A DNA stretch of 64,000 nt from Thermoanaerobaculia bacterium (lineage in GTDB: Bacteria > Acidobacteriota > Thermoanaerobaculia > Multivoradales > JAHEKO01): positions 171,968 to 235,967 of the forward strand of contig CAMYNM010000003.1 in NCBI GenBank assembly GCA_947259725.1. Reading direction: 5' to 3'. Position 1 is the stretch's first letter, and each line of letters begins with the position of its first letter. The notes beneath the pieces were generated by a model that was given only the letters and a program-made list of their open reading frames with translations, made no database searches and was not told the DNA's origin. This document shows positions 34,325 to 64,000 of the stretch, piece by piece. Position numbers and translations under genes: made by a program.

Positions 34325-34350
34325 CTGCGTCCATCCATCTCTTTCTTGTT

Positions 34351-34535: not shown

Positions 34536-34572
34536 CCTAGCCCAGCGCGGAAACAGGTGTCAATAGCCAGCT

Positions 34573-35961: not shown

Positions 35962-37548
35962 ATGCCCAGGTTCACTCGTGCCCAGATCGTATTGCTTGCC
36001 GCCGCGGTGGTGCTCGGCCTCGGCCTTGCGACCAGCTACTGGGCCCTGCGCAAGTCGACCGCAAATCTGATCGGACGACTCGACGAGTTCGGCACCAGCG
36101 GCCGCAACCCGGGTGCGGTTCACGACGTTGCGCGGGAAACGAATCGCTCGACTGCCGGCCTGATGGCCGCCCGCGCCCTGCTGGCCGAAGAGCTCGACCG
36201 CCGCTGGCTAAGGGAGCTCGACCCCGAAGAGCTCGGCCGCGCCGTGGGCCAGGGCGAGGCGAAGCTCGAACTGGCGAGAGACCTGGCGCTCGAGGCGCTG
36301 CGCGAGCAACCGAGCTCCTGGCAAGCACTGATGATCCTCGGCGGAGCACGCTATCTGCTCGCCAGCCGCCGCAACGTCCCCGGCCGCTGGAGCGATCGCG
36401 ACTCGTGGGCGTTACCCCTGAGCACGGCGATCGCACGAGCTCCCGCCCAGCCGGAGCCCAAACGCGTTCTGGCTGCCGCCTATTTGAGCGAGTGGTCGAT
36501 CGCCAGCGACGCCGAGCGCCAAGCGCTACTTCCATTCCTGCAGGAGGCATTTCGCGATCTGAACACTCTCGAGCAGCTGCTGCCGGCTTGGCTCAACCGC
36601 GCCGGCTCGTTCGAACAGGCCCTCTCGGTGATCTCCCCCGACCCCCGAGCCTGGCGACAGCTCGACCACTACTACCGCCAGCGCGAGGACTGGCAGCGGC
36701 TTGCGGAGGTTCTCGACCGCCTCGACCGGTCACTGCCGGAGTACTTGCACTCCCGCCTCGAGCTTGCACACAAGATGCTCGATGGCGGCGAGGCCGAGTC
36801 GGCGCGCCGGGTGGTGCTCACGACAATCGACGAGATCCCGATGCGCGCCGAGTACGCCGATCATCTCGCAAAAGCGATCAACCAGCTGCCGCCGGGACCG
36901 ATCTCGGCCCGCAGAGCCGAGCGGCTCGGAGAGTGGATCGAGTGGTCGGCGGAGCGCTGCCTTCTTGCCGATTGCCCGTTCTCGGTCGAGGTATTCGAGC
37001 GGCTCACCCGCCTGGCTCGTTCGGATGAGCCCGGCCGCCAGGCCCTCGGCGCTCTACTACGGGGAGATCTCGCGGCCGGCGTCTCGATCGAGCAACGAAA
37101 CTCGGCGCGCGTCAAGACGCCGGCCTGGATGACCTACGACCTCCTCAAGGCCAAGGTGCTGGCAAACCTCGGCCAGACGCGGGAAGCGGGGCGTCTCTTC
37201 CAAGAGGCCGGCACACATCCCGGAGGAGGGGTGCTCGCCCGCCACCTGGCTCAACAGCTCGGCAGCGAACAGAACGGGGGTATCGGCACCGTCGATTCGG
37301 GCTGGCGGGGGTGGAAGCGTGGCTACCGCCGGGAGCTTCTCGCCGAAACCGCCGGTAGCTTCGAGATTCGCTTTCCCGAGGTCGCCGGCGGTGGCGCCGT
37401 CGTCGAGGTCAGGGTCAATCAATCCCTGGAGGGTTTTCACCCTATCGAAGCCGGCACGGCCGTGCGGATCGATCTCGGGCCCGGCTACGTGCGGGTGGAT
37501 CTCCTGCGCGAGGCGGGCTCCACCTTCCGGCCAGCGGAAGCGATGTGA
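35962..37548 (+). CDS. Hypothetical membrane-anchored protein (528 aa), function unknown
   Basis: N-terminal TM anchor followed by a large Ala/Leu/Arg-rich helical domain. No motif recognised. Its 3' end overlaps the convergent ligase gene. Confidence 0.5.
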   Translation: MPRFTRAQIVLLAAAVVLGLGLATSYWALRKSTANLIGRLDEFGTSGRNPGAVHDVARETNRSTAGLMAARALLAEELDRRWLRELDPEELGRAVGQGEAKLELARDLALEALREQPSSWQALMILGGARYLLASRRNVPGRWSDRDSWALPLSTAIARAPAQPEPKRVLAAAYLSEWSIASDAERQALLPFLQEAFRDLNTLEQLLPAWLNRAGSFEQALSVISPDPRAWRQLDHYYRQREDWQRLAEVLDRLDRSLPEYLHSRLELAHKMLDGGEAESARRVVLTTIDEIPMRAEYADHLAKAINQLPPGPISARRAERLGEWIEWSAERCLLADCPFSVEVFERLTRLARSDEPGRQALGALLRGDLAAGVSIEQRNSARVKTPAWMTYDLLKAKVLANLGQTREAGRLFQEAGTHPGGGVLARHLAQQLGSEQNGGIGTVDSGWRGWKRGYRRELLAETAGSFEIRFPEVAGGGAVVEVRVNQSLEGFHPIEAGTAVRIDLGPGYVRVDLLREAGSTFRPAEAM

Positions 37549-38939
37549 GCCGCGCCGCCAGTGGCCCGAGGAGCGACGGCCAGTGCGGCGCCGACGACAA
37601 CAGCTACCAACAAGCCGTTCGCGGGAAGCGTCAGACCAAAGTCCAGGAACTCGTGGATACCGACGGAGGCCAGCGCACCCAAGGCGCCCAGCACAAACAA
37701 GCGATCTTCGTTTCGCTCGGCTGCCGCGAACTTGCCGATCAGCGATCTCAACGTCCAGACCGAGCCGAGTACGAGAATCGCCAGGCCGGCAAGACCGCCG
37801 GTGATCCACAGCTCGAGGTAGTCGTTGTGCGCCTTCGCCCAAGTGATCGCGACGCTCGAGTCGCGCCCCACAAGTGCATGCGCCTCTCGAAAGCCACCGA
37901 TCCCGGTGCCCAGCCAGGGGAACCGGGCGATCAGCGGTAGCGACTCCCGCCAGACGCCGATTCGACCGCTGGTAGCGATGTCGTACCAGGAGGTACCCAG
38001 GAGCCTGGAGAACAACTGGCTCGCTCCTACCCAGCTCACGAAGCCAGCTATCGCTGTCACAGGAATCAGCGCCGCCACGAGCGTTCGGCGCAGGCCGCGG
38101 CTGCGGATCAGCAGCCCTCCCTGGGCGACGAGCCCGCCGAGCGTCGCGAGAGCCGCCGCCCTCGAGCCGGTGAGCGCGTTCCCGACCAGCAAGGCGAGAA
38201 GCGCCAGGCTCAGGGCGGCGACCCATAACCAGCGAGCCTCGCTCACCTTCGACCATCGGCGACTGACCAGCGCCCAGACCAGGGCAGCGAAGCACATGGC
38301 CGTGCCGACCTCCAGAAGCAGCGCCAGGTGATCGGAATTGATGTAGGAACCCCGCAACCTCGGCACTCGCCCTGCCACCAGCGGACCGGCCCCCAGAACC
38401 ACCTGAGTCAGACCGGCGATCAGCGCCGCTCCAAAGAGCCAGCGTCGGCGCGACCGCCGGCGAAAGACGACGCCCGCGGCCGCGATCGCGGCTGCGAGGC
38501 TCGCCAGCTCGAAGCCCACCCACCGTGAGGTCGATGCGGCGAGCGACAGCGGGATGCGAGTCGCGCCGACCGCACCGGTCACCTCGGCGGTTTCGCGAGC
38601 CAGCTCCAACCGCTCGGGGGACAAGACGGCGACAAGCCGAGAGGGCAGCCCGACCGACTGAAGCCAGGCAAGAACCGCCAAGGCCAAGACCGCCAGCACC
38701 GTGCCCCAAGTGCGCTCCCACACCGACGTCGGCCGGCGCGAACCGGCGGCGATCGAGAAGGCCAGGAGCGCGAACCCGTAGCCGGCCAAGGACGCGCCCG
38801 GCGTCGCCCCACCGTGAAAGACGGGCAAAGTAGCCACCGTCGCGCACAAGACACCCGCTGCGAGGTCTCGAGAAGACGGTATGATCTGCCGCGGCCCGAG
38901 CACCTGCGCAGGATACCGAGAGACCAGAACCGCCGACAA
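37485..38939 (-). CDS. O-antigen ligase (WaaL/Wzy_C) family membrane protein
   Basis: At least 10 TM segments and a WAKAHNDYLELWITGG Wzy_C motif. The true start is probably an internal GTG/TTG, because the ATG at 38939 leaves only 5 nt to the divergent gene. Confidence 0.75.
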   Translation of the reverse strand: MSAVLVSRYPAQVLGPRQIIPSSRDLAAGVLCATVATLPVFHGGATPGASLAGYGFALLAFSIAAGSRRPTSVWERTWGTVLAVLALAVLAWLQSVGLPSRLVAVLSPERLELARETAEVTGAVGATRIPLSLAASTSRWVGFELASLAAAIAAAGVVFRRRSRRRWLFGAALIAGLTQVVLGAGPLVAGRVPRLRGSYINSDHLALLLEVGTAMCFAALVWALVSRRWSKVSEARWLWVAALSLALLALLVGNALTGSRAAALATLGGLVAQGGLLIRSRGLRRTLVAALIPVTAIAGFVSWVGASQLFSRLLGTSWYDIATSGRIGVWRESLPLIARFPWLGTGIGGFREAHALVGRDSSVAITWAKAHNDYLELWITGGLAGLAILVLGSVWTLRSLIGKFAAAERNEDRLFVLGALGALASVGIHEFLDFGLTLPANGLLVAVVVGAALAVAPRATGGAAHIASAGRKVEPASRRRSTRT

Positions 38940-38944
38940 ACTCG

Positions 38945-40219
38945 ATGCCTCGACCCGTTCTCGTATTGCTCCTGCTGGTCGCAGGAGCGCCGCTTCCCAG
39001 CCTCGCGCAGTTCGATCAATACACCGCTCCCGGCAGCCTGGCCAGCGCGCAGACCAAAACGAGGGCCGACCAGGCGCGAGAGAGCTCCGAGAGCGCGCGC
39101 TGGCACCTCGGCCGTCTGGCGCTCGAGCCGAGCGTGGTAGTGCGCGATGTCGGCTACTTTCGCAATGCGCTGGCCACCCCCGATGAAAACAGCCAGGTCG
39201 ATGACTATCGGGCCACCCTCGCAGCCGGCCTGTCGGCCTTTCAGAAGCTCGGATCGAAGTCGCTGTTCTCGGCGTACGTGGCGCCCGAGTACTCGTGGTG
39301 GCGGGATCAGAGCGAGCTCAGCAGCTTGAACCTCAACTGGGGCGCCGGATGGTTCGGCTACTTCAATCGGTTGACGATCGGCGCGAACGTCGGCCGGACG
39401 AAGCGCGAGCGCCCGCTCAGCGACGAGCTCGAGGCGCCCTTGACGATCGAGCAAGACCGCCGCGAGGTCAGCGCCGAGTTGGTCTTAACCGACGCGATAA
39501 CAGTTTTCGGCGAGACGACCGAGACCGAGACGCGCCATACGACGGAGGTGCAACGTCTGATTCCCGGCCTGATGAGCCAGACCCTCGACCGAGATTCCGA
39601 TACGACGAGAATCGGCGCGGTGCTCGAGGTTCGGCGGTGGCGGATTGGCGCAGGAGTCGAAAGCACCGACATCCGGCTCCTCATCGACCCGGACGGCAGG
39701 TCGAATTCCGGGGACAGTCCCTTCGCGCTGGTCCGCTACGACAGTGAGAGCCTCGACCTCGATCTGAGCTGGGTTGACCGGGAGCTCGAGTTCGACAACC
39801 CTTTGCTCGGCCGTGAGTCGCTCACCGACGGCTACGCTCGCGTCGCGCTTGACCTCAGCGAGGGCGCTCGCATCAGCGTGTATGGGGCGCGTACGCTGGG
39901 CCTTTCGGTCCTGGCCACGAACAGCTATCTGGTCAATACCCGAGGGGGGGCCTCCCTGGGGCTGGACGTGGGTCGCCGAGCTCGGCTCACCGTCTTCGCC
40001 GAGCAGGGAGAAGCGGACTTTCGAGGTCCGAGCTTGGATCCCAGAACCGACGATCTCGACGCCCTGGGTGCCCAGCTCGACTGGCGGCTGACCGGCGATC
40101 TCGAGCTCGGACTTTACTTTCGAGATTCGACCTGGGATTCCAGCCTCGACGACTTCGACCGGTCTCAGAGCTCCTTCGGCGTCAATCTCGAGATCGGGAC
40201 CGACCTGTTCCCTTGGTAA
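38945..40219 (+). CDS. Putative outer-membrane beta-barrel protein (first gene of the polysaccharide export operon)
   Basis: Clear signal peptide MPRPVLVLLLLVAGAPLPSLAQ, alternating amphipathic beta-strand pattern, and a C-terminal aromatic residue (FPW). Confidence 0.55.
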   Translation: MPRPVLVLLLLVAGAPLPSLAQFDQYTAPGSLASAQTKTRADQARESSESARWHLGRLALEPSVVVRDVGYFRNALATPDENSQVDDYRATLAAGLSAFQKLGSKSLFSAYVAPEYSWWRDQSELSSLNLNWGAGWFGYFNRLTIGANVGRTKRERPLSDELEAPLTIEQDRREVSAELVLTDAITVFGETTETETRHTTEVQRLIPGLMSQTLDRDSDTTRIGAVLEVRRWRIGAGVESTDIRLLIDPDGRSNSGDSPFALVRYDSESLDLDLSWVDRELEFDNPLLGRESLTDGYARVALDLSEGARISVYGARTLGLSVLATNSYLVNTRGGASLGLDVGRRARLTVFAEQGEADFRGPSLDPRTDDLDALGAQLDWRLTGDLELGLYFRDSTWDSSLDDFDRSQSSFGVNLEIGTDLFPW

Positions 40220-40255
40220 CAGTCAGCCGGCGAAAAGCCTCGGTATAATCGCGAG

Positions 40256-41098
40256 ATGCGCCGGATCTTCACGCGATCCTGGACCACGGTGACCCTCGCG
40301 GTCTGCCTTGTCTCGTCAGCCGGGATGGCCCAGTCGGGAGCCTCGCTCGACCGCTACCGGATCGGGCCACGGGACGTCGTCAGGGTCGAGGTCCTGGAGG
40401 ACGAGTCCCTCAATCTCGACAGGGCCCGCGTCGATCAGGACGGCGCCATCGAGCTCCTTCACGTCGGCCCGGTTGTCGTTTCCGGAATGACCGAGTCCCA
40501 AGCCCGCATCGCTGTCGAGGAGGCGCTCTCGCGCTATCTTCAGAGAGCCACGGTTTCGCTTCGAATCTTGGAGTTTCGCTCCAAGCCGATCACGATCCTG
40601 GGAGCGGTCCACAAGCCGGGACCGCTCGAATTCTCGGGGCGCTGGACGCTGCTCGAGGCACTGATGGAGGCTGGTGGCCCGACCGAGAACGCCGGCGCGA
40701 CGGTCCACGTCACTCGCCGCGCGACCAACGGGCTGACCGACCAGCTCACCATCGGCCTACGCGACCTGATCGAACGCGGCGATCCTCTGGCCAACATCCC
40801 GCTGACCGCCAACGATCTTGTGACGGTCTCGACCGCAGCCGACGTCACAGTGTTTTGCATCGGCGAGTTCGCCACGGCCGGCGCGATCACGTTCCGGAGC
40901 ACCGAACGAGTCACCTTGCTCGCGGCAATCGCCAGGGCGGGCGGGCTCACCAATAGCGCCGCCAATCGCATCGTCGTCCGGCGGCCCGCTACCGGAGAAG
41001 AGATCGTGGTGTCGTGGAAGAAGCTCCTGGCCAACCGCACCCCGGACATATCGCTCCATGAAGGCGATTTCGTGATCGTCAAGGAGTCCTTCTTTTGA
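40256..41098 (+). CDS. wza: Polysaccharide export protein (Wza/KpsD family; Poly_export plus SLBB domains)
   Basis: Signal peptide and YRIGPRDVVRVEV, the Poly_export signature YxIGxGDxL. SLBB repeats downstream. Confidence 0.85.
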   Translation: MRRIFTRSWTTVTLAVCLVSSAGMAQSGASLDRYRIGPRDVVRVEVLEDESLNLDRARVDQDGAIELLHVGPVVVSGMTESQARIAVEEALSRYLQRATVSLRILEFRSKPITILGAVHKPGPLEFSGRWTLLEALMEAGGPTENAGATVHVTRRATNGLTDQLTIGLRDLIERGDPLANIPLTANDLVTVSTAADVTVFCIGEFATAGAITFRSTERVTLLAAIARAGGLTNSAANRIVVRRPATGEEIVVSWKKLLANRTPDISLHEGDFVIVKESFF

Positions 41099-43329
41099 AG
41101 CCCTCGAACATCCCGCTGAGCCCGCAGGATCCGCTCGCCGAGACGGGTCGTTCATTCGGCGTTTCTGCCCGCGAATACGCCGCGATCGTCACGTCGCGAT
41201 GGAGGCTGATCGCAGTGGTTACAGCCCTGACAGTCGCTTTGGGGTTGTTGCATTTCTATCTGACGCCGCGGCTGTACCGGGCGCAAACCCTGCTTCAGAT
41301 AGAACAGCGAAGCCCGTTGAGCGTGGGGCGCGAGGCAAACCCGTATCTCCAGGCCTACCTGACCCAGAAGTACTACCCCACCCAGTACCGGCTTCTGAGA
41401 AGCCGGGACCTCGCCGAGCGAGTCGTCAAACGCCTCAATCTCAACGACGATCCCCGATTTGCGGCTCGGCCCGGCGGGAACACCGACCCCGCGTCCGACG
41501 AGCTCGCTCTTGCGCGATTCGCCAGCCGAATCCTAGGGGGGCTCTCGATCAAGCCGGTTCCAGGAACCGAGCTCGTCTCGGTCGAGTACGTCGCCTCGGA
41601 CCCCAACCTCGCGATCGAGGTGATCAACACTCTCGCGCAGGAATACATCAATTGGAATCTCGAGAACCGCTCGCTCGAGGTGGACAAGACATCTCAGTTC
41701 CTGCAGACCGAGCTTCAGGCCCTTCGACAGGAGATCGCCGACAAGGAAAAGCAGCTCGAGGAGTACAGCCGCCGCTCCGACATCGTCACGCTCGACCCAT
41801 CGTCCAACCTGACGCTCCAGCGGCTCGAACGGCTCAACGCCGATCTCATCACCGCCCAGGGAGCCCGCCGAGAGAAGCAGGCCGGTCTGCGCGAGCTCGA
41901 GGCCCTGCCGCGGGCCAGCGTCGCCGACGAGGAGGCCAACGGCCTGGTCTCGGCCATGCGACGTGATCAGCTCAAACGCCAGAGCGAGTACGACTCAAAG
42001 CTCCAGGTCTACAAGCCCGACTGGCCCGAGATGGTGGAGCTCAAGGCTGCGATCGACGAAGGCGAACGAGCCATCAATCGGGAGATCGAGAAGCAGTACG
42101 GTGAGGCGAGGCGCCGACGAGAGGCCGAATACCAGACGGCCCTCCGACAGGAGCGTGGCCTGGAGAGCGAAATCGCCAGGGTCAAGTCTCAGGCCCTGGA
42201 TCTCAACTCGGTGTCGGTCGAGTTCAACAGTCTCAAAATGGAGATCGGCGCCCGCCGCGACCGGCAGGACACCCTTCTCCAGGAGCTCGCCACCGCCGAC
42301 ATGTCGGCCCGCATGTTTCAACAGCGAGAATCCAACATCCGAGTGGTCGAAAGCGCCCTGATACCTTCGAAGCCCTTTCGTCCCTCGCTGCGGCTCGACC
42401 TCGCGACCGGCCTGACCGCCGGAGTCGCGCTCGGCATCGCCCTGGCCCTCCTGCTCCACTTCCTCGATCGCACGGTCAAGACGCCCGAGGAGCTTGAGCG
42501 ACTCCTGGGATTGCCGCTTCTCGGAGTCATTCCGGACGCCAACGACAAGGGGCGAAGCTACGCCTCGTACGGCTACGGACGAACCCGACGAAAGACAGCG
42601 GAAGTTCCCGACAAGTCTCAAGAGCGCAATATCGAGCTGGTGCCCGCGCTCCATCCCCGGCTCGCCATCTCGGAGTCCTACCGCTCGCTGCGCACCGCGC
42701 TGCTCCTGTCGAGCGCCGAACAGCTAAATGTCATCTCGGTCACCTCGGCAGAGTCAGGTGAAGGCAAGACCTCGACCGCCGCCAACCTGGGCGTGGTCAT
42801 GGCTCAGCTCGGCAAGCGGGTGCTCATCGTGGACGCCGATCTTCGCAAGCCGCGGCTCTTCAAGGTCTTCGGAGTTTCGAACCGAACCGGCCTGGTGCAT
42901 TACCTGACCGGCTCGGCGTCCGCGGAGTCGCTTTGCCTGCCGACCTCGGAAAAGGATCTCTTTCTGTGCCCGGCCGGACCTCACCCTCCAAACCCCTCGG
43001 AGCTTCTTGCGTCGGACCGGATGGACAGCTTTTTGGAGTTCGCCGCGAGCGCATTCGATTTCGTAATCGTCGACTCACCCCCGGTCTTGGCGGTCACCGA
43101 CGCCGTTCTGATCGGCGGCAAGTGTCAAGGCACGGCACTGTGCTTTCGCGCGAACACGGTCGAGCGCTCGAGCGTCCAGGCGTGCAAGCATCGTCTCGGG
43201 CTCTCAGAGATCCGAGTGCTCGGCGCGATACTCAATCGCTACTCTCCTTCCCGCGTCGGCTACGGCGCCAGGTACGACTACTACTACGACGCGTATGGCG
43301 AAGAGTCCAAGAGCTCTTCGGCCGCCTGA
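41095..43329 (+). CDS. wzc: Polysaccharide co-polymerase / BY-kinase (Wzc/EpsB-like tyrosine autokinase)
   Basis: Wzz-like N-terminal TM domain, coiled-coil, C-terminal P-loop SGEGKTSTAANLG, DADLRKP, and a Tyr-rich tail YGARYDYYYDAYGE. Confidence 0.9.
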   Translation: MKPSNIPLSPQDPLAETGRSFGVSAREYAAIVTSRWRLIAVVTALTVALGLLHFYLTPRLYRAQTLLQIEQRSPLSVGREANPYLQAYLTQKYYPTQYRLLRSRDLAERVVKRLNLNDDPRFAARPGGNTDPASDELALARFASRILGGLSIKPVPGTELVSVEYVASDPNLAIEVINTLAQEYINWNLENRSLEVDKTSQFLQTELQALRQEIADKEKQLEEYSRRSDIVTLDPSSNLTLQRLERLNADLITAQGARREKQAGLRELEALPRASVADEEANGLVSAMRRDQLKRQSEYDSKLQVYKPDWPEMVELKAAIDEGERAINREIEKQYGEARRRREAEYQTALRQERGLESEIARVKSQALDLNSVSVEFNSLKMEIGARRDRQDTLLQELATADMSARMFQQRESNIRVVESALIPSKPFRPSLRLDLATGLTAGVALGIALALLLHFLDRTVKTPEELERLLGLPLLGVIPDANDKGRSYASYGYGRTRRKTAEVPDKSQERNIELVPALHPRLAISESYRSLRTALLLSSAEQLNVISVTSAESGEGKTSTAANLGVVMAQLGKRVLIVDADLRKPRLFKVFGVSNRTGLVHYLTGSASAESLCLPTSEKDLFLCPAGPHPPNPSELLASDRMDSFLEFAASAFDFVIVDSPPVLAVTDAVLIGGKCQGTALCFRANTVERSSVQACKHRLGLSEIRVLGAILNRYSPSRVGYGARYDYYYDAYGEESKSSSAA

Positions 43330-44066
43330 TGATCGACATCCACGCGCACGTTCTACCCTCCATCGACGACGGCGCGGAGAATCTGAAGATCGCCGCCGCG
43401 ATGTGCCGATTCGCGGCCGATGACGGCTGCACCGCTCTCTTGGCTACACCCCATCAGCGGACGCCCAGCTGGTGGAACTGTGACCCTCGGAAACTGCAGC
43501 GCGACCTCGACGAGGTTCGAGCGGAGGTGGGAGATACCCCCCGGCTTTACCTCGGCGGCGAGATCCGAGTCGACGCGAGCCTACTCGAGGCACTGGGCGA
43601 CATTGAAGGAAGTGGCGTGCAACCACTCGCCGGCTCACGGTACCTCTTGCTCGAGCTCAGCCGCCGCGGGCTCGGCCGCCTGGATCCCGAGGCGCTCGCT
43701 CACGAGCTTCGGCTGCTTGGCTGGCGCCCCATCTTTGCGCACCCCGAGTTCATCCCCGATCTCTCGGCCTCTCCGCGGCTGATCGAGAAGATGGCCCGGA
43801 GCGGTGCGTTGTTCCAACTGACCGCGATGAGCCTCACCGGCGGCTACGGTCGCAAGATCCAGCGATTCTCGGAGAAGCTGGTGGCCGACGGATTGGTGCA
43901 CTTCGTTGCGAGCGACGCTCACGACCTGACGCGACGCCCGCCGGGCTTGCGCAAGGTCCATGATGCGTTGAGCAGGAAATTCGGCAGGGACCGCGCCGAC
44001 CAACTGACGATGAAGAATCCCGGCGCGATTCTCGCCAACCGGCCGATCGAGGCGAGCGCCAATTGA
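43329..44066 (+). CDS. PHP-family protein-tyrosine phosphatase (CpsB/Wzb-type)
   Basis: MIDIHAHVLPSIDDGA... and FVASDAHD PHP motifs. Its ATG overlaps the wzc stop (TGATG). Confidence 0.85.
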   Translation: MIDIHAHVLPSIDDGAENLKIAAAMCRFAADDGCTALLATPHQRTPSWWNCDPRKLQRDLDEVRAEVGDTPRLYLGGEIRVDASLLEALGDIEGSGVQPLAGSRYLLLELSRRGLGRLDPEALAHELRLLGWRPIFAHPEFIPDLSASPRLIEKMARSGALFQLTAMSLTGGYGRKIQRFSEKLVADGLVHFVASDAHDLTRRPPGLRKVHDALSRKFGRDRADQLTMKNPGAILANRPIEASAN

Positions 44067-44074
44067 GGAAGTCG

Positions 44075-45535: not shown

Positions 45536-45605
45536 CGAAATCCCTTTACTCCCCGTAGTGTTGTCGTGGTCGCCCCGCGTGGCGGCTTGAACTCGAAAGG
45601 TCTCC

Positions 45606-46364: not shown

Positions 46365-46447
46365 CCCTCCCACCGGCCTGACCGAATCGGCCGGTTAGTG
46401 CGGCTACCGCGGCTACCGAAAACCGGGTTCAATCGCCGCTTCGCCTC

Positions 46448-47770: not shown

Positions 47771-47790
47771 GCCGGCACTCGCCCGCGCTG

Positions 47791-49613: not shown

Positions 49614-49631
49614 CCCGGCAGCCGAGCCGTC

Positions 49632-50351: not shown

Positions 50352-50366
50352 GAGACACCGCGCGCC

Positions 50367-51870: not shown

Positions 51871-51875
51871 GCGGC

Positions 51876-55990: not shown

Positions 55991-56040
55991 ACTGTGTGTG
56001 GCGAACCCTCGTCGTATCGGGGCCGCCCCGTGAGTGGATC

Positions 56041-57213
56041 ATGCCGGCATCTCCAATGACCTCCCCCCGGAAGCTTCTCGTGGTCCGACCCACGCTGGGG
56101 CAAGGTGGCGCCGACCGCGTTACTGCAACCCTGCTGCGCAACATGGACCCCACTCGGTTCGACACGAGCCTGCTGCTTTTCAGGCGCGAGGGCCCCCACC
56201 TCGGCGACGTCCCCGACGAGATACCGGTCAGGGCGCTCGGAGCTCGCAGCTTGTGGACGGCCTGGTGGCCCTTGGCCCGGCACTTGCGCGCCCAGCCACC
56301 CGATGTTCTCTTCTCGACCTGCAGCGGCACCAACGTCGTCGCGTGTATCGCGAGTGCGCTCGCCGGCCGGCCCGCCCGCCTGGTTCTTTCGGAGCGCAAC
56401 GTTCTCCTGAGAGACCAGCCCTTCTTCAAAAAGTGGCTGATGTTACTCGCCAAACGAGTGCTCTATCGGTCGGCCGATACTGTCACCGCGGTATCCCGGG
56501 GCGTCGCCGACGACCTGATCGAGAAGCTCTCGGTGTCACCCGATCGGGTTCGGGTCGTCTACAACCCGATCGTCGAGCCGGGGATCGACGAGCTCGCCGT
56601 CGAGCCTCTCGACGAACCTCCGTACGGCGGGGCCGAGCCGATTCTTCTCGCCGCGGGCCGGCTGGTCCCTGCCAAGGGCTTCGACGTCCTCCTTCGGGCC
56701 TTCGCCGAGATCACCCGCCGGAAGGACGCCAGCCTGGTGATCCTGGGGGACGGCCCGGCGAGAAGAGCGCTTCGGGCTCTAGCCGCCTCCCTTGGGATAG
56801 AAAGCCGGGTCTTTTTCCCCGGCTTCGTCAAGAACCCCTTCCGCTACATGGCCCGATCGACGGTGTTCGTTCTTTCCTCCCGATATGAAGGACTTCCGGG
56901 AGTCTTGATCCAGGCGATGGCCTGCGGCGTACCGGTCGTCTCGACCGACTGCCCGGCGGGCCCGAACGAGATCATCACCCAGGGAAAGGACGGCATCCTG
57001 GTTCCAGTCGGATCGGCCGAGGCGCTCGCCACCGAGATCACCCGCCTGCTTCACGATGCCGACCTTCGCCAACGGCTGGGAGCCGCCGGACGGGAACGCG
57101 CCCAGCGTTTTTCGGTCGCGACCGTTACCGATGACTATCTGCGCGCGCTCACCGGCGGCGCGAGCTTCACGACGCCCGATGCCCACGGGTCGTCGCGGTC
57201 CACGACCGGATAG
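56041..57213 (+). CDS. GT4 family glycosyltransferase
   Basis: EGLPGVLIQAMACGVPVVSTD (the EX7E region) and the N-terminal GT-B domain. Start uncertain: a GTG at 55996 would extend the product. Confidence 0.85.
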   Translation: MPASPMTSPRKLLVVRPTLGQGGADRVTATLLRNMDPTRFDTSLLLFRREGPHLGDVPDEIPVRALGARSLWTAWWPLARHLRAQPPDVLFSTCSGTNVVACIASALAGRPARLVLSERNVLLRDQPFFKKWLMLLAKRVLYRSADTVTAVSRGVADDLIEKLSVSPDRVRVVYNPIVEPGIDELAVEPLDEPPYGGAEPILLAAGRLVPAKGFDVLLRAFAEITRRKDASLVILGDGPARRALRALAASLGIESRVFFPGFVKNPFRYMARSTVFVLSSRYEGLPGVLIQAMACGVPVVSTDCPAGPNEIITQGKDGILVPVGSAEALATEITRLLHDADLRQRLGAAGRERAQRFSVATVTDDYLRALTGGASFTTPDAHGSSRSTTG

Positions 57214-57216
57214 GCG

Positions 57217-58410
57217 ATGCCGGCCGAGATCGTCTTTCTGATCTCCAACGATCGGCACCACCCGGCGATGGTGGAACCGGTCATGCGGCAAATACTGGAG
57301 CGCGGCCAGGCCGGCTGCCGGGTCGTCTCACTGTGCGAGCTGCGGGGCCAGACCTCTCCGACCGACACTTTCCGGCGGATTGGAGTCGACTGCCGGCGCG
57401 TTCTGCCGTTTCACCTGCGCCGAGGCGCGGTCGCCCGGGGCGTCACCGCCTCCAAGTCGGTCTCCGGCCGTCACAAGCATCTTCAAGACCTGGTCTGGCG
57501 GCTCGCGGTCGGACCTCGGCTCGCCGCCCTGCTCTCGCCGGACCCGGCGGTAGTGGTTCTACCCAACGACGCCGCCTATCCCTACGATCGTCTGGTCCGG
57601 CGGCTCCGGCGGCGCAAGACGCCTTTCGTCCTGTTGCAAGAGGGGATTCGCTTCGAGCTACCGGGGGTTCCCCTTTCGCGCGCCTACGGAAGCGGCGGCG
57701 CTGCAGCGATCGCCGCCTGGGGCGACTCGAGCGCCGGCTACTTCCAAAGCGCCGGGGTCGAGCCTCAGCGGATACACGTCACCGGCAACCCGCGCTTCGA
57801 CGGAATCGAGAGCCTGCGTCCGAAGCAGCGTCCGCAGAAACAGGCAGCGATATCAGAGCCCAAGAAACTCCTGGTGGTCACCAATCCGATCGACGAGCAA
57901 GGTTTCTGCTCGAGTGACGAAAAGCTCGCGCTCGTTCGTCGTTTTGCCGACGAGATCACAACTCTGGTCGAGGACCGGACTCTGCGCCTCGAGCTCAAGC
58001 TGCATGCGAGTGAGTCGGCCGACGACTACCGCAGGGCGCTCGCCGGCTCTTCGATTCTGAGCCAACTCTCGATCTTCGAGAACGAACCTCTCTTTCCGCT
58101 GCTCCAATCGGCCGACGCCGTGGTCATCATGGCCTCGACCGTCGGACTGGAGGCACTTCTCTTCGACGTTTCGCTCGGCGTTCTCGAGCTTCCCGGAACG
58201 GGCTTCGTATTCGACTACGTTCGCGACGGAGCGGCAATCGGGCTCACCTGGTCGAGGCCCATGGCCCCTCAGGTTCTAGCTCTGCTGGACTATCATTCCT
58301 CAGACACCGCGCGGTTTCTCATGAAGCACCTACACCGATCGCCCGACCGGCCGGCATCGGAGGCGGTCGCCCTGCTGATCGTCGATCTCGCATCGCCGGG
58401 CGCCGGCTGA
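57217..58410 (+). CDS. Uncharacterised protein in the polysaccharide locus (possible glycosyl/phosphotransferase; VTGNPRFD motif)
   Basis: 397-aa soluble protein with no clear family. Weak resemblance to capsule-biosynthesis or glycerophosphotransferase-like proteins. Confidence 0.5.
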   Translation: MPAEIVFLISNDRHHPAMVEPVMRQILERGQAGCRVVSLCELRGQTSPTDTFRRIGVDCRRVLPFHLRRGAVARGVTASKSVSGRHKHLQDLVWRLAVGPRLAALLSPDPAVVVLPNDAAYPYDRLVRRLRRRKTPFVLLQEGIRFELPGVPLSRAYGSGGAAAIAAWGDSSAGYFQSAGVEPQRIHVTGNPRFDGIESLRPKQRPQKQAAISEPKKLLVVTNPIDEQGFCSSDEKLALVRRFADEITTLVEDRTLRLELKLHASESADDYRRALAGSSILSQLSIFENEPLFPLLQSADAVVIMASTVGLEALLFDVSLGVLELPGTGFVFDYVRDGAAIGLTWSRPMAPQVLALLDYHSSDTARFLMKHLHRSPDRPASEAVALLIVDLASPGAG

Positions 58411-58420
58411 ATAAGGAACC

Positions 58421-59791
58421 ATGAACCAACCCGAAACGCGATCGATTCTGCACCTGCTTCTGCCGGCCCTGGTTTTTTCGGCGTTCTTGACCGAGATCAA
58501 GTTCATCCCCGCAATCGCCAACAACGTCGGGCTCTTCGAAGTGCTCGGCGGGCTCGCCATCGCTCTGTTCTTCCTGATACCGCACGGCAGCGCGATCTCC
58601 GGGAATCCTCTGATCGCGATGGTCGGATTGATGGTCGTAGCGGCAGTGGCGTCTCTGGTCAACGTGCAGGCGGGCTCGCTGCAAACCGGGCTGATTCAGG
58701 TCACGATTCTGGTCTTTCTTCTGCTGTTCCTGTTGGTCTTCTACAACCTGTTCCTGCAGCGTCAGATCGATCCCAGCTACCTCTTGCGATGGATCACCTT
58801 GTCGGCTGCCATCGTGGGTCCGTGGATTCTCCGGCAAGGATTCCTCTACTCGACGGACATCGAAGCGGTGGGCCCGTTCCGGAATCGGTCACACATGGGC
58901 ATCTACATGCTGACCGCCTTCTGGTTGGTGCTCGTCTATACGTTCTGGCCGGATCGGCGCCGAGTCAGATGGACCAAGTGGATCAAGACACCCGTGTGTC
59001 TGGTGGCCCTGGCGCTAAGCCTGTACGCGGTAGCGATCTCGGGACGACGGTCGGTCTACTTGTCGCTATTTCTCGGTCTGGTCGGTCTGGTGCTGGTTTT
59101 CAATCTCGTCTTGCGACGGCGCCGCGCGGTGGTCGCCGTCATCCTCGCCTTCGCTGTCGGCTTCTTAGGTCTGCTTTACACCGGCGGCGGCGATTTCCTG
59201 CCGCGCAGCGACTTCTTCCAGGCGCGGGTAGACATGATCGGAAGCCGGCTGCGCACGGCCTCGGACGCCATCTCGGGAGCTTCCGAGTCCGGATTCATGG
59301 CCATGCAGATGCAGGGCGTCAAGACTGCCGTCAGCACGCATCCTCTGCTGGGGATCGGCTGGGGCACCTTCCACGAATGGGTCCTCAACCCGAGCCGACA
59401 CGAGGTTCACAGCACGCCCTTGAAGTTCCTGGCCGAGACCGGCTTCTTCGGCTTGGCTATCTATCTCACCTTCCTGTTTCGCCTGGTGTTCGGCGCCGGC
59501 CGCCTCGCGGTGCGCATGCGCGGCTCGCCGTATGCCGCCAGTTACCTGGTGCTTTCTGTGGCAACGGCGAGCCTGTCGGTGAGTTATCTGTACAACCGGC
59601 ATCTCACTGAGCGAACCTTCTGGCTGCTTCTCCTCGTCTTTCTGGTGCTCGAGGCCTTCGCCTTCGGGTACGAAAGCGAGATACTGAAACGACAAGCCGC
59701 GCGCAGCCAAGCCGCCGCGCGCCTCGAGCCGGCTCCTCCGCTATCGCACGGCCAGCCGATCAACGTCCCCGCCGGCCATGACCGCGCCTGA
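58421..59791 (+). CDS. O-antigen polymerase-like (Wzy_C family) membrane protein
   Basis: At least 10 TM segments and a large periplasmic loop with HEVHSTPLKFLAETG, a Wzy_C motif. Confidence 0.75.
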   Translation: MNQPETRSILHLLLPALVFSAFLTEIKFIPAIANNVGLFEVLGGLAIALFFLIPHGSAISGNPLIAMVGLMVVAAVASLVNVQAGSLQTGLIQVTILVFLLLFLLVFYNLFLQRQIDPSYLLRWITLSAAIVGPWILRQGFLYSTDIEAVGPFRNRSHMGIYMLTAFWLVLVYTFWPDRRRVRWTKWIKTPVCLVALALSLYAVAISGRRSVYLSLFLGLVGLVLVFNLVLRRRRAVVAVILAFAVGFLGLLYTGGGDFLPRSDFFQARVDMIGSRLRTASDAISGASESGFMAMQMQGVKTAVSTHPLLGIGWGTFHEWVLNPSRHEVHSTPLKFLAETGFFGLAIYLTFLFRLVFGAGRLAVRMRGSPYAASYLVLSVATASLSVSYLYNRHLTERTFWLLLLVFLVLEAFAFGYESEILKRQAARSQAAARLEPAPPLSHGQPINVPAGHDRA

Positions 59792-60968
59792 TCGAGCCCC
59801 AAGATCGGCCCCGGGCATCACGTTCGTGGTCACCGATTCGTTGACGGCTCGCTACCTGCTCCGTGGCCAACTCGCGTTCCTTGCACGAAGCGGATTCAAG
59901 ATCGACCTGGTCTGCTCGCCGGGCCGATGGGTCGAGGAAATCCGGGCGCACGAGGGGGTCCGCTGCCACGAGCTTGCCATGGAACGTGAGATCCGTCCGC
60001 TGCGCGATCTTCGGAGCCTGTTCGGTCTGGTTCGCTTGCTGCGCCGTCTTCGCCCGGACATCGTCTGCGCCAGCACTCCCAAGGCCGGCGTCCTCGGGAT
60101 GCTGGCGAGCGCGATCAGCCGTGTCCCGATGAGGATACGGGTCGTCCGGGGGCTTCGGCTCGAGACGACTCGGGGCTGGAAGCGATGGGTGCTTTCGGCG
60201 GCCGAGAGCGCCGCGGCGGGCTGCGCTCATCGGGTCATCTGCGTCAGCGACAGCTTGCGTGCCGAGCTTCTGAGACAAGGCCTGGCGTCCGCCGGCAAGA
60301 CCCAGGTGCTGGGAGCGGGCTCTTCGAACGGCGTCGACGCCAGCCGGTTCCGGCCGGCCCGCGATGCCGCGGAGTCCGCGCCGCTTCGGCAAACCTTGGG
60401 CCTGGGAACCGACACGCCGGTAATCGGCTTCGTAGGCCGCTTGACGCGCGACAAGGGCATCCAGGACCTCATCCACGCTTTCACCGAAGTCGTCCAAGAG
60501 AAACTTCCGAGCTCCCGTCTGCTGGTTCTGGGAGCTCCCGACGCCGGTGATTCCGTCACCTCGTCAACCGAGATGTTCCTGCGAGACGACGACTCGGTGA
60601 TCTTTCCCGGTTTCGTTACCGACACCGCGCCCTACTATCGGCTGATGCAGGTACTGGCCTTTCCCTCCTACCGGGAGGGCTTTCCGAACGCGCCTCTAGA
60701 AGCGGCGGCCTCGGCGGTGCCGACGGTCGGCTACGCCGCCACCGGCACCCGAGACGCGGTCGTCGACGGCCTTACGGGCTCCCTCGTGCCGGTCGGAGAC
60801 TGGCGAGCTCTCGGAGACCTTCTATGTGACTATCTCCTCGATCCGGAGCGGTGCCGTTCTCGAGGCGAAGCCGGCCGGCAACGTGCGCGGGCGGCCTTTT
60901 CGAACCAGGTAGTCTGGACGCGTTGGAAAAACCTCTACGCTGAGCTGAGCGACCGCCCAACACAGTAA
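59778..60968 (+). CDS. GT4 family glycosyltransferase
   Basis: EGFPNAPLEAAASAVPTV EX7E motif and the N-terminal GT-B domain. Confidence 0.85.
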   Translation: MTAPDRAPRSAPGITFVVTDSLTARYLLRGQLAFLARSGFKIDLVCSPGRWVEEIRAHEGVRCHELAMEREIRPLRDLRSLFGLVRLLRRLRPDIVCASTPKAGVLGMLASAISRVPMRIRVVRGLRLETTRGWKRWVLSAAESAAAGCAHRVICVSDSLRAELLRQGLASAGKTQVLGAGSSNGVDASRFRPARDAAESAPLRQTLGLGTDTPVIGFVGRLTRDKGIQDLIHAFTEVVQEKLPSSRLLVLGAPDAGDSVTSSTEMFLRDDDSVIFPGFVTDTAPYYRLMQVLAFPSYREGFPNAPLEAAASAVPTVGYAATGTRDAVVDGLTGSLVPVGDWRALGDLLCDYLLDPERCRSRGEAGRQRARAAFSNQVVWTRWKNLYAELSDRPTQ

Positions 60969-60983
60969 GCTCGGAAGGGCCGC

Positions 60984-61616
60984 ATGAACTTCTTCTATAG
61001 GCGATACGGCAAACGCGTGCTGGATCTCGGCATCACCATCCTGCTATCGCCCATCGCGCTTCCGCTCTCCCTTCTGACGGCTTTGGTCGTCCGGCTCGCT
61101 CTCGGCTCACCGATTCTTTTCACTCAGCAGCGCATCGGCCTCGACTCCCGACCCTTTCTCATGCGCAAGTTCCGGACAATGCGAAACGCAGCCGCTGAAA
61201 GCGCCGCCGAAGCCCCGGACGCGGATCGCCTCTCGAAGACAGGGACCCTGCTTCGCCGGCTGAGCCTCGACGAGCTTCCGGAGCTGGTCCATGTGGTCAA
61301 GGGCGAGATGAGCCTCGTCGGGCCGCGGCCGCTCTTGCCTCGCTATCTCCCGCTCTATTCGGCCGAACAGGCTCGCAGACACGAGGTTCGGCCCGGGCTT
61401 ACCGGACTGGCGCAAGTTCGGGGGCGCAACGCGCTGAGCTGGGACGACAAACTCGCCTACGACGTCCGGTACGTAGATACGCTGAGCCTGCGAAATGACC
61501 TGACCATCCTGGCGATGACCTGCTGGACACTTCTGCGTGGCCAAGGCGTTTCCGCGCCAGGCCACACCACCATGCCTGAGTTCCGTGGCAGATCCGATCC
61601 GGGGCAGGAAACGTGA
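60984..61616 (+). CDS. Initiating polyprenyl-phosphate sugar-phosphotransferase (small PglC/WbaP-C-type bacterial sugar transferase)
   Basis: Single N-terminal TM segment plus conserved DELPQL-like (DELPELVHVVKGEMSLVGPRP) and PGLTG motifs. Confidence 0.9.
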   Translation: MNFFYRRYGKRVLDLGITILLSPIALPLSLLTALVVRLALGSPILFTQQRIGLDSRPFLMRKFRTMRNAAAESAAEAPDADRLSKTGTLLRRLSLDELPELVHVVKGEMSLVGPRPLLPRYLPLYSAEQARRHEVRPGLTGLAQVRGRNALSWDDKLAYDVRYVDTLSLRNDLTILAMTCWTLLRGQGVSAPGHTTMPEFRGRSDPGQET

Positions 61617-62271
61617 CCAGAAAACGACTGGCAATCGTCGGCGCCGGCGGCTTCGCTCGTGAGCTCCGCTGGCTGGTGTCCGAGATCAATTCGAGCGCAG
61701 AAAAGTTCGAGTTCTCCGGATTCGTGGTCAGCGATCTGGAGCGTCTCGGGAGCCGCGACAGCCAAGACAGCGTCCTCGGAGACTTCTCGGTCTTCAGCTC
61801 ATCGCGATTGACCTTCGACGCGATCGCGCTGGGCATCGGCTCTCCCAAGGTGCGGGTCGACATGGCGCGCGAGATCCGTCGGCTGAATCCCAATCTCGAA
61901 TGGCCCGCCTTGGTCCATCCTTCCGTCAAGTTCGACGCCGCAACCTGCGAGTTTCAGGAGGGAGCCGTAGTGTGCGCCGGCGTTATCGCCACGGTCCACG
62001 TCACGGTGGCGCCGCTGGCGCTCGTCAACCTTGCCTGCACCCTCGGGCACGAGACCGTTGTCGGCGCCGGGTCGGTCTTGAATCCCACCGTCAACGTCTC
62101 CGGCGGAGCCCGCATCGGAGAACGGGTTCTGGTCGGAACCGGCGCGCAGATCCTCCAGTACCTAGCGATAGGAGACGACGCCGTCGTCGGCGCCGGCGCA
62201 GTGGTGACGCGAGACGTCGCTTCGGGGCAGACGGTCGTCGGCGTTCCGGCGCGACCGAAAGGATCGGGGTG

Positions 62272-62272
<1 letters not shown>
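61613..62272 (+). CDS. Sugar N-acetyltransferase (PglD/NeuD/WbpD-like hexapeptide transferase)
   Basis: N-terminal Rossmann-like LAIVGAGGFARE and a C-terminal LbH domain. GTG start overlapping the upstream stop. Confidence 0.85.
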
Positions 62273-63411
<1,139 letters not shown>

Positions 63412-63416
63412 GCTCC

Positions 63417-64000
63417 TTGCTCGATCTACGAGAGCTCAAGCCTCCGGAGCCCGACGTCACACCCGAGCTCGTGTGGGTCTTGAGGGCCGCTTTCGCACTG
63501 GAGGCCCCCACGCCTCCAGCCAATCTCGACTCCGGGCTGGTGACGTCGCAAGCCCGGGACCTGGCCGTAACCGAGCGCATCGGAGCCCGTCACGACCTCG
63601 GGGAGCTCACCGCGGAACTTCATGGCCCATTTCAGGCATCCCGAGCACGCGCCGCCGCGATCGGGTTGCACTACGAGCGCCTCGCCCGCGAGGTCGCGGA
63701 GGTCGCCTCCGGCCTCGAAACGCCGGTCGTATTCCTGAAGGGCCTGGCGCTGGTGCTTGCGGGATGGAGCGATCCCGGGGCGCGCTCCTTCAGCGACCTC
63801 GACATACTCGTCCCCGAGGAGCGCGCCCACGACCTCTTCAACGCCCTGGTCGGACGGAAGTTCCGGCCCGCCAGGGCCGAACCCACCGAACAGCACCTAC
63901 CGGAGCTCGCGCCGCCCGGCGGCGGCTCGCTCGAGGTGCATTTCGCGCTTCGAGGCATCCAGGTCAACGGCCGATTCGCCGGATACGACGACCTCGCCGA
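63417..64000 (+). CDS. Nucleotidyltransferase-family protein (NTP_transf_5-like), 3' end outside the window
   Basis: I translated this frame by hand; it is not in the ORF track. It runs LDLRELKPPEP...GLALVLAGWSDPGARSFSDLDILVPEE..., open to the window end, with a TTG start at 63417. Confidence 0.5.
   Translation, partial: MLDLRELKPPEPDVTPELVWVLRAAFALEAPTPPANLDSGLVTSQARDLAVTERIGARHDLGELTAELHGPFQASRARAAAIGLHYERLAREVAEVASGLETPVVFLKGLALVLAGWSDPGARSFSDLDILVPEERAHDLFNALVGRKFRPARAEPTEQHLPELAPPGGGSLEVHFALRGIQVNGRFAGYDDLA

Follow-up and report, generated by a model that had tools for sequence, protein, structure and literature searches.

A conserved four-gene cytidylyltransferase module in a Thermoanaerobaculia surface-polysaccharide locus: a possible oxidative route to CMP-activated ulosonic acids

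A 64,000-nucleotide stretch of the Thermoanaerobaculia bacterium contig CAMYNM010000003.1 (GenBank assembly GCA_947259725.1, positions 171,968 to 235,967; hereafter the window) carries a surface-polysaccharide locus in which the genes for a D-2-hydroxyacid dehydrogenase, an extended short-chain dehydrogenase/reductase (SDR), a NeuA/PseF-like cytidylyltransferase and a HAD-IA phosphatase lie together. These four genes form a module that is conserved over at least six phyla. Judged from sequence, there is about an even chance that the module is a self-contained oxidative route to a cytidine monophosphate (CMP)-activated 2-keto (ulosonic) sugar acid, a route that would dispense with the phosphoenolpyruvate (PEP)-condensing NeuB/KdsA synthase. 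To our knowledge, all well-known CMP-activated sugars, i.e., 3-deoxy-D-manno-octulosonic acid (Kdo), ketodeoxynonulosonic acid (Kdn) and the sialic, pseudaminic and legionaminic acids, obtain their keto acid from such a synthase. The module would thus be a widespread, apparently undescribed form of CMP-ulosonate biosynthesis. The type of locus is itself ordinary, and the novelty sits in the embedded module.

Conservation and linkage of the module

The cytidylyltransferase has 759 database homologues, and among the 120 matches listed identity to the query is 70-82%, bar one identical sequence. A scan with one genome per species gave 80 loci, with cytidylyltransferases 65-82% identical to the query, from Thermoanaerobaculia/Acidobacteriota, Chloroflexota, Bacteroidota, Planctomycetota, Gammaproteobacteria, Limnochordia and Tectomicrobia; the module is present in hundreds of environmental genomes, and the Bacteroidota include the cultured carriers Neolewinella and Roseivirga, the latter with R. 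echinicomitans KMM 6058 at locus L029. Beside the cytidylyltransferase, homologues of the 2-hydroxyacid dehydrogenase are found in 71 of the 80 loci, of the SDR in 68 and of the HAD phosphatase in 61. An independent metagenome sample of 32 loci gave 26, 24 and 20, respectively. Two gene orders recur. The window has the first, in which a uridine diphosphate (UDP)-sugar dehydrogenase is followed by the 2-hydroxyacid dehydrogenase, SDR, cytidylyltransferase and HAD phosphatase; in the second, found in Bacteroidota, the cytidylyltransferase precedes the dehydrogenase, SDR and HAD phosphatase, with a 397-aa GT-B protein further along. The UDP-sugar dehydrogenase has a homologue in 36 loci and is directly upstream of the module, with or without the HAD gene, in 33. 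The three partner enzymes all retain their catalytic and cofactor motifs. The cytidylyltransferase is by far the most constrained of the four: median identity to the window proteins over loci L003-L082 is 68% for this enzyme, 53% for the dehydrogenase, 53% for the SDR and 41% for the HAD phosphatase.

This distribution changes how the locus is to be read. A preliminary description, made from the window alone, had seen in it an eclectic tailoring set in which the cytidylyltransferase was one item among two methyltransferases, a P-loop protein and two Wzy_C proteins. The methyltransferases, P-loop protein and Wzy_C proteins turn out to be lineage-specific, with homologues in 0-2 of the 80 loci, and it is the CMP enzyme with its three neighbours that makes up the conserved core. 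Nor is there support for a WbpA/B-like branch, which had been proposed for the UDP-sugar dehydrogenase, an oxidoreductase and an epimerase. The oxidoreductase is a D-2-hydroxyacid dehydrogenase, and together with the SDR it belongs to the four-gene module and not to a Wbp-type pair. No GFO/IDH/MocA (WbpB-type) 3-dehydrogenase is present in the window locus, and a WbpA/B/E/D/I pathway to UDP-ManNAc3NAcA was rejected.

The cytidylyltransferase and the search for a synthase

By profile and alignment, the cytidylyltransferase is a member of the ulosonate-activating family CTP_transf_3 and forms a distinct subfamily within it. It scores 67.6 bits against PF02348, where the gathering score is 22.6, and its residues 3-187, including the RQ...AY stretch, align with the CMP-N-acetylneuraminic acid (CMP-Neu5Ac) synthetase 6ifd (88 bits). 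It falls below every NCBIfam equivalog cutoff, with 94 bits against the 205.7 required for PseF (TIGR03584) and 30-44 against 155-281 for the KdsB models, and it is about 29% identical to a PseF-like enzyme. Neighbour-joining places the whole family in one tight clade, separated by a very long branch from the PseF-type enzyme and with internal branching that is largely taxonomic, which suggests a slowly evolving enzyme that has not recently spread. Its tryptophan-rich C-terminal motif, PNPWWWMGKRC, finds no alignment in the solved CMP-Neu5Ac synthetase.

Where might the keto acid for this enzyme come from? The preliminary statement that the cytidylyltransferase lacks a NeuB/KdsA-type synthase in the window holds: there is no NeuB or KdsA homologue in the 64 kb, nor does the syntenic relative L085 have one, even in the 4.7 kb by which its sequence extends beyond the point equivalent to the window end. 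A tblastn search with E. coli KdsA found no match in the window, in the 80 genome loci or in the 32 metagenome loci, and KdsA was rejected as the missing partner. In nine of the 80 loci the cytidylyltransferase has a PseI/NeuB-like gene no more than 10 kb away, all from Roseivirgaceae and relatives, with a clear PseI at 516 bits; two further loci, L060 and L065, gave weak NeuB-like matches. At least five of the nine carry a second cytidylyltransferase (L030, L031, L035 and L058, plus a fusion in L039). The nonulosonic-acid pathways therefore bring their own activating enzyme, and the cytidylyltransferase of the module is additional there. As NeuB occurs in just nine of the 80 loci, with two further weak matches, and usually comes with a cytidylyltransferase of its own, it was likewise rejected as a general missing partner. 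The fusion, at 747-2777 of L039 on a Roseivirga chromosome, is a 676-aa protein that joins CTP_transf_3 to a class-III aminotransferase about 3 kb upstream of PseI. The preliminary description had held that a synthase, together with a described system of the same gene content, would make this locus a known one. Both were looked for, and neither a synthase nor a description of the module was found in the loci and the literature searched.

Lactonases and aldolases recruited to the module

Other enzymes that join the module in some genomes bear on its chemistry. Lactonases have been recruited in 10 of the 80 loci. In nine Bacteroidota loci a 6-phosphogluconolactonase (TIGR01198, 125-154 bits against a cutoff of 124) directly follows the HAD gene, and in the gammaproteobacterial locus L022 an unrelated SMP-30/gluconolactonase (E 5e-60) is directly upstream of the cytidylyltransferase. 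In six loci that have neither SDR nor HAD phosphatase, a GarL/HpaI/YfaU-type class-II pyruvate aldolase is encoded immediately downstream of the cytidylyltransferase. The aldolase-linked cytidylyltransferases fall at three separate places within the tight family tree, which points to two routes that end in an identical or closely similar substrate. That the oxidative and aldolase modules strictly exclude each other was considered and abandoned, as this holds in the genome set and is broken by one metagenome locus. The neighbouring families all belong to sugar-acid chemistry, with steps from lactone to aldonate and on to 2-ketoaldonate, and with 2-keto-3-deoxy acids. One metagenome-assembled genome (MAG), SMAG_U4708, carries the pair of cytidylyltransferase and HpcH-type aldolase three times, on three contigs (L054, L059 and L066), in sulfotransferase-rich polysaccharide loci.

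A putative oxidative route to a CMP-ulosonate

The substrate and the order of steps that we infer for the module are as follows. The SDR would oxidize a hexose phosphate (hexose-6-phosphate) at C1 to a lactone, which would open to a phospho-aldonate, either spontaneously or, in some genomes, through the recruited lactonase. The 2-hydroxyacid dehydrogenase could then oxidize C2 of the phospho-aldonate, e.g., 6-phosphogluconate, to a 2-keto acid, the HAD enzyme would strip the phosphate from this keto-acid phosphate in the manner of KdsC or the Neu5Ac-9-phosphate phosphatase, and the cytidylyltransferase would form the CMP-sugar. The linked 397-aa GT-B protein would finally transfer the sugar to the repeat unit. 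SDR-type sugar 1-dehydrogenases exist, and the SDR has weak matches to the glucose-6-phosphate dehydrogenase Azf and to uronate dehydrogenases. The 2-hydroxyacid dehydrogenase matches enzymes of phosphorylated substrates and of 2-ketoaldonates, and among its relatives SerA, PdxB and KguD act on phosphorylated 2-hydroxy or 2-keto acids. A 2-ketogluconate-type hexulosonic acid is our best guess for the sugar, and it is held with low confidence. The reading in full, i.e., a new dehydrogenase-based route to a CMP-activated hex-2-ulosonic acid, a new GT-B transferase family and an aldolase feed in some lineages, is tentative, and we rate its chances at roughly one in three.

The succession of keto-acid phosphate, phosphatase and CMP activation is the logic of the CMP-Kdo, CMP-Kdn and nonulosonic acid pathways (KdsA-KdsC-KdsB; synthase, phosphatase and synthetase by way of Kdn-9-phosphate; NeuB/PseI/LegI with NeuA/PseF/LegF). 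The module shares with these pathways a cytidylyltransferase of the NeuA/PseF/KdsB family and a HAD phosphatase. Unlike them, it has a 2-hydroxyacid dehydrogenase and an SDR in place of the PEP-condensing synthase, and its cytidylyltransferase belongs to a separate clade; the HAD phosphatase is of type IA, whereas KdsC of the Kdo pathway is a type IIIA HAD. The E. coli group-2/3 capsule loci (KpsU, KpsC/KpsS) are similar in having a cytidylyltransferase with no synthase in the locus and a GT-B protein, here one with weak Capsule_synth similarity. Those capsules, however, depend on an ABC transporter, and their KpsU is a genuine paralogue of KdsB, whereas the window locus is of the Wzx/Wzy type and its NeuA-like enzyme has a dehydrogenase, SDR and HAD phosphatase of its own. 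The same families, SDR, lactonases, D-2-hydroxyacid dehydrogenase and GarL/HpaI/YfaU aldolase, are found in oxidative sugar-acid metabolism (KguD/GhrB, HpcH-type aldolases). That metabolism is catabolic, but here the genes stand in polysaccharide loci beside a CMP-activating enzyme, implying anabolic use, and the module proteins score below the equivalog cutoffs.

If the proposed route is correct, its consequences reach beyond this locus. Searches of genomes for acidic sialic-like surface sugars depend on finding the synthase and would miss the module. The glycobiology toolbox would gain one cytidylyltransferase subfamily and one GT-B family. The module would also be a candidate route for capsule hexulosonic acids whose genetics are not settled, such as that of E. 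coli K3, in the capsule of which a 4-deoxy-2-hexulosonic acid is cited in PMC10433991. On the conservative reading, with a synthase encoded elsewhere, this would be just another uncharacterized exopolysaccharide (EPS) locus.

The linked 397-aa GT-B protein

Which enzyme would use the CMP-sugar? A 397-aa protein assigned to the GT-B fold has a homologue in 29 of the 80 loci, and in 25 of the 40 loci with full flanks its gene is no more than 10 kb from that of the cytidylyltransferase. The transferase role that we infer for it is favoured, with moderate confidence, over that of an epimerase-like enzyme. Across 60 family members the weak Pfam affinities are to Capsule_synth (KpsC/KpsS) in 55, Epimerase_2 in 35, Kdo transferase in 24 and polysialyltransferase in 11. 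The Capsule_synth matches (E <= 1, best E 5e-8) both outnumber and outscore those to Epimerase_2. The window protein itself reaches 13.4 bits against PF05159, where the cutoff is 20, and so resembles Capsule_synth without being a member; setting it against a Roseivirga Capsule_synth protein brought no result. The invariant residues D118 and E142 of the family align with WecB catalytic residues. A plain WecB homologue was considered and rejected, with an hhalign probability of 3%, and the protein is not placed in Epimerase_2 (PF02350).

Several observations weigh against the proposed route. The best structural matches of the 397-aa protein are 2-epimerases, not transferases. In the PDB, the 2-hydroxyacid dehydrogenase scores higher with a short 3-phosphoglycerate dehydrogenase (1wwk, 204 bits) than with a 2-ketogluconate reductase (9m0t, 147 bits), and 2-hydroxyacid dehydrogenases usually favour reduction, so that oxidation would need a pull from the later steps. 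The SDR, whose role is the least certain, has its best match in 6wj9/6wjb (103 bits), well above uronate dehydrogenases (39-42 bits). We take 6wj9/6wjb to be the UDP-GlcNAc 4-epimerase PelX, in which case the SDR may act on a nucleotide sugar. Lactonases are found in only 10 of the 80 loci and the aldolase in six, and the metagenome locus L124 carries both the oxidative module and the aldolase. A search of the literature on the module, on CMP-hexulosonates and on 2-ketogluconate-type glycans yielded no description and no precedent for a CMP-hex-2-ulosonate. Finally, the synthase search covered the loci rather than whole genomes, leaving room for a synthase encoded elsewhere.

Alternative explanations

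The last point leads to the simplest alternative, that the cytidylyltransferase activates canonical Kdo, Kdn or a nonulosonic acid supplied by a synthase encoded elsewhere, while its partners modify that sugar or supply a substituent for it. We consider this unlikely. The enzyme is indeed NeuA/PseF/KdsB-like, but it scores far below the KdsB and PseF cutoffs and is separated from PseF by its long branch. In E. coli group-2 capsules KpsU draws on housekeeping Kdo, which KpsC/KpsS then transfer, an arrangement to which the weak Capsule_synth matches of the 397-aa family (55 of 60 members) would correspond. On the other hand, the module is common in Chloroflexota, most of which lack lipopolysaccharide and Kdo. 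Four of the nine loci with a PseI/NeuB-like gene within 10 kb (L019, L029, L037 and L071) show no second cytidylyltransferase in the stretch examined, which fits this reading; yet a synthase, where present, usually comes with a dedicated second cytidylyltransferase, about 70 of the 80 loci have no NeuB-like gene, and KdsA is found in none. The near-obligate linkage to a 2-hydroxyacid dehydrogenase and the recruited lactonases and aldolase would also be left unexplained.

The resemblance of the dehydrogenase to 3-phosphoglycerate dehydrogenases raises the question of whether the product could be a three-carbon acid. In such a scheme the dehydrogenase and the HAD enzyme would turn 3-phosphoglycerate into hydroxypyruvate or glycerate, and the cytidylyltransferase would activate a phospho-acid to a donor of the CDP-glycerate type, from which a phosphodiester or acyl substituent would be made. 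This is quite improbable: the phosphatase would destroy the phospho-substrate that is needed, the SDR would have no role, and the 6-phosphogluconolactonase and gluconolactonase point to hexose-level chemistry. The characterized CTP_transf_3 enzymes that we know of activate the anomeric hydroxyl of 2-ulosonic acids, whereas CDP-alcohol donors come from IspD/TarI- or TagD-type enzymes. Slightly less probable still is that the four genes are neighbours and not one pathway, in which case the SDR would act as UDP-HexNAc(A) 4-epimerase and the 397-aa protein a divergent UDP-GlcNAc 2-epimerase, both serving the UDP-sugar dehydrogenase, with the 2-hydroxyacid dehydrogenase and HAD phosphatase in accessory or redox roles. 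The PelX-like SDR match and the epimerase-like structural matches of the 397-aa protein fit this proposal, but the dehydrogenase-SDR pair stays beside the cytidylyltransferase in the Bacteroidota arrangement, where no UDP-sugar dehydrogenase lies within 10 kb. Neither does the 397-aa protein track the UDP-sugar dehydrogenase: in the 40 full loci both occur in six, the dehydrogenase alone in 10 and the GT-B protein alone in 19, and L085 likewise has the GT-B protein with no adjacent UDP-sugar dehydrogenase. The low hhalign probability against WecB and the predominance of Capsule_synth over Epimerase_2 matches also speak against a divergent 2-epimerase, and the cytidylyltransferase would be left without a substrate. 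The oxidative CMP-ulosonate route gives each of the four module genes a step.

Organization of the polysaccharide locus

The region is confirmed as a genuine surface-polysaccharide cluster of the Wzx/Wzy-dependent exopolysaccharide or capsule type. It spans window positions 37485-64000, with all genes except the first in one direction, and runs off the 3' edge (Table 1). Pfam and NCBIfam scans located nearly all the gene families listed in the preliminary description of a >26-kb locus, and initiator, Wzx, Wzy, Wzc, phosphatase and OPX families were all matched, in agreement with the full Wzx/Wzy toolkit described earlier; an acidic, methylated heteropolymer, as then predicted, is a fair prediction. 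Without a Pfam match are 38945-40219, 45606-46364 and 57217-58410, and also the adjoining open reading frame (ORF) at 35962-37548.

Table 1. Genes of the polysaccharide locus in the window. L001 and L002 are near-identical sister MAG contigs and L085 is a syntenic relative; locus counts refer to the 80 related loci.
Feature	Coordinates	Strand	Basis and remarks
First Wzy_C polytopic membrane protein, possible ligase or second polymerase	37485..38939	-	Wzy_C E 8e-17; at least 9 hydrophobic segments
Secreted 424-aa protein, candidate Wzp-like outer-membrane beta-barrel partner of OPX	38945..40219	+	Signal peptide, no Cys, C-terminal ...LFPW
Class-3-type OPX (Wza-like), 280 aa	40256..41098	+	Poly_export and 2 SLBB, no Wza_C
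Wzc-type polysaccharide co-polymerase/BY-kinase	41095..43329	+	Wzz, GNVR, CbiA/AAA_31 P-loop domains; Tyr-rich C-terminus
CpsB/CapC PHP-type tyrosine phosphatase	43329..44066	+	PF19567 E 1.5e-49
Tetratricopeptide repeat (TPR) protein	44063..45535	+	TPR_19 and others; cluster c18, tblastn matches in 9-11 loci
Secreted 252-aa protein	45606..46364	+	No Pfam/NCBIfam match; 12/80 loci, up to 75% identity
UDP-HexNAc (ManNAc/GlcNAc-type) 6-dehydrogenase	46448..47770	+	TIGR03026 410 bits; UDP-ManNAc dehydrogenase equivalogs nearest, below cutoff
D-2-hydroxyacid dehydrogenase, core module gene 1	47791..48729	+	2-Hacid_dh_C E 4e-54; cofactor and catalytic motifs present
Extended SDR, core module gene 2, role least certain	48726..49613	+	Epimerase E 2e-37; GxxGxxG and YxxxK intact
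NeuA/PseF-like cytidylyltransferase, core module gene 3	49632..50351	+	CTP_transf_3
HAD-IA phosphatase, core module gene 4	50367..51095	+	HAD_2 and Hydrolase; DFDGV and GDGLSD motifs
S-adenosylmethionine (SAM) methyltransferase 1	51088..51870	+	Methyltransf_25/23; 2/80 loci; 65% identity in L085
Wzx flippase	51876..53393	+	Polysacc_synt_3 E 1e-70
SAM methyltransferase 2, lineage-specific	53390..54160	+	Methyltransf_11/25; 1/80 loci
P-loop protein, Walker A only	54157..54864	+	AAA_33 27.7 bits; 2/80 loci
GT4a glycosyltransferase, frameshifted	54861..55990	+	Intact 373 aa in L001 and L002; true start 54861
GT4b glycosyltransferase	56041..57213	+	Glycos_transf_1 E 6e-43; start as called in L001
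397-aa GT-B protein linked to module	57217..58410	+	No Pfam match above cutoff
Wzy polymerase (second Wzy_C protein)	58421..59791	+	Wzy_C E 4.5e-11; 69% identical in L085
GT4c glycosyltransferase	59778..60968	+	Pfam; homologues in 26-37 loci
Small PglC-type phosphoglycosyl transferase, initiating enzyme	60984..61616	+	Bac_transf E 2e-54
PglD-like N-acetyltransferase	61613..62272	+	PglD_N (weak, E 5e-5) and Hexapep
DegT/PglE-like sugar aminotransferase	62272..63411	+	DegT_DnrJ_EryC1 E 3e-95
NTP_transf_5 gene, cut by window edge	63402..64000	+	PF14907 E 4e-12

Two kinds of relative help to place the locus. A sister MAG contig of Thermoanaerobaculia type, GCA_945787635.1, encodes an identical cytidylyltransferase and is 99.9% identical to window positions 44777-60359. 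L085 is syntenic: from the dehydrogenase through NTP_transf_5 nearly all genes show 53-77% identity, the exceptions being GT4a (46%) and the PglD-like gene (26%). Beyond NTP_transf_5 it has genes for a PglF-like dehydratase, an SDR, a methyltransferase and a carbamoyltransferase. In Thermoanaerobaculia loci the module lies in a conserved left half, beside the export genes, and the glycosyltransferase half varies.

Initiation, extension and decoration of the repeat unit

Assembly of the repeat unit would begin with the PglC-type enzyme, which would load undecaprenyl phosphate with a diamino sugar resembling bacillosamine, made by the DegT and PglD-like enzymes and a PglF-like enzyme expected past the window. 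The GT4 enzymes would then extend the unit, Wzx would flip it and Wzy would polymerize it. A bacillosamine-type initiating sugar is indicated by the PglC-, PglD- and DegT-like genes together with the PglF-like gene downstream in L085, a 647-aa Polysacc_synt_2 protein that follows NTP_transf_5; the window ends before such a position. The consecutive PglC-, PglD- and DegT/PglE-like genes, and the PglF-like gene of L085, resemble the Campylobacter Pgl system (UDP-diNAcBac, PglF/E/D/C). There the product is an N-glycan, whereas here it would be a Wzy-polymerized repeat unit, PglF is outside the window, and the PglD-like match is weak. The order GT4a, further on the 397-aa protein, Wzy, GT4c, PglC, PglD and DegT also occurs in Roseivirga, suggesting that much of the repeat-unit machinery travels with the module.

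GT4a homologues are present in 32 of the 80 loci, often beside the cytidylyltransferase. In the window, GT4a is frameshifted after about 54 codons by an 8-bp tandem duplication at 55015-55030 (ACGACTTC twice) that is not present in the sister contigs L001 and L002. This may reflect an error of assembly, a pseudogene at strain level or an on/off switch by strand slippage.

The UDP-HexNAc dehydrogenase may supply a second acidic sugar, and the methyltransferases would decorate the polymer in this lineage only. At the place of methyltransferase 2 and the P-loop protein (53390-54864), L085 has a Sulfotransfer_3 gene (8001-8840), and it seems that decoration genes of an otherwise common repeat unit are swapped between close lineages. 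The P-loop protein had earlier been described as kinase-like; the P-loop itself is matched, and the kinase label rests on the Walker A stretch only. All of its PDB matches have E > 0.08, giving no significant solved relative. A diverged sulfotransferase was also considered and rejected, as the protein has no similarity to the L085 sulfotransferase at the same position.

Export, polymerization and flanking genes

Export would proceed through Wzc, the PHP phosphatase and the short OPX, probably with the 424-aa protein as porin. The Poly_export/SLBB protein that had been called Wza is present, but as a short OPX of Class 3: Pfam finds Poly_export and SLBB only, and no Wza_C or GfcC domain. Class-3 OPX proteins consist of Poly_export-SLBB only and are reported to pair with an 18-stranded beta-barrel encoded next to them (PMC9603273). 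The 424-aa protein adjoins the OPX gene, the synteny is kept in Thermoanaerobaculia relatives, and its size, signal peptide and aromatic C-terminus would be compatible with a barrel; by this analogy it is a candidate porin for the Class-3 OPX. A single-sequence AlphaFold2 model of it had a pLDDT (predicted local distance difference test) score of 33, and a crude strand-alternation scan gave no information. The occurrence of a short Poly_export-SLBB OPX next to a secreted protein about 420 aa long, accompanied by Wzc and a phosphatase, is reminiscent of the Myxococcus xanthus Wzx/Wzy systems for EPS, biosurfactant polysaccharide and major spore coat polysaccharide, known as EPS, BPS and MASC (PMC9603273, PMC9601211, PMC12819527). 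In M. xanthus Wzp is a beta-barrel, whereas its 424-aa counterpart here is only a candidate, and the sugar-precursor genes are unrelated. The TPR and 252-aa proteins keep their place between the phosphatase and the sugar-precursor genes in Thermoanaerobaculia/Multivoradales relatives.

The second Wzy_C protein, taken as the Wzy polymerase, has homologues in two of the 80 loci and the first in none; the latter may be a ligase or a second polymerase. The TTG start of the first Wzy_C ORF and the ATG with which the divergent 424-aa gene begins are 5 bp apart, and because of this the true start is probably 36-150 bp further in, with alternatives at 38903-38789. At its 3' end the ORF overlaps a convergent 528-aa ORF (35962-37548) by 64 bp; Pfam gives no match for the latter, and none of the related loci has a homologue of it.

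Because GC content is about 65% throughout the window, genes were chosen by third-position GC and length. GC is uniform (61-68%), with no compositional sign of a foreign island, and that origin was rejected for the locus. Positions 1-35,500 hold housekeeping genes only, among them those for an S41 protease, acyl-CoA dehydrogenase, GlpX, PBP1, a UvrA-like protein, ABC-F, MetH and methylenetetrahydrofolate reductase. The last two, at 30833-35529 on the opposite strand, lie about 2 kb upstream of the locus with the 528-aa ORF between, and the proximity of these methyl-cycle genes to two SAM methyltransferases is probably a coincidence.

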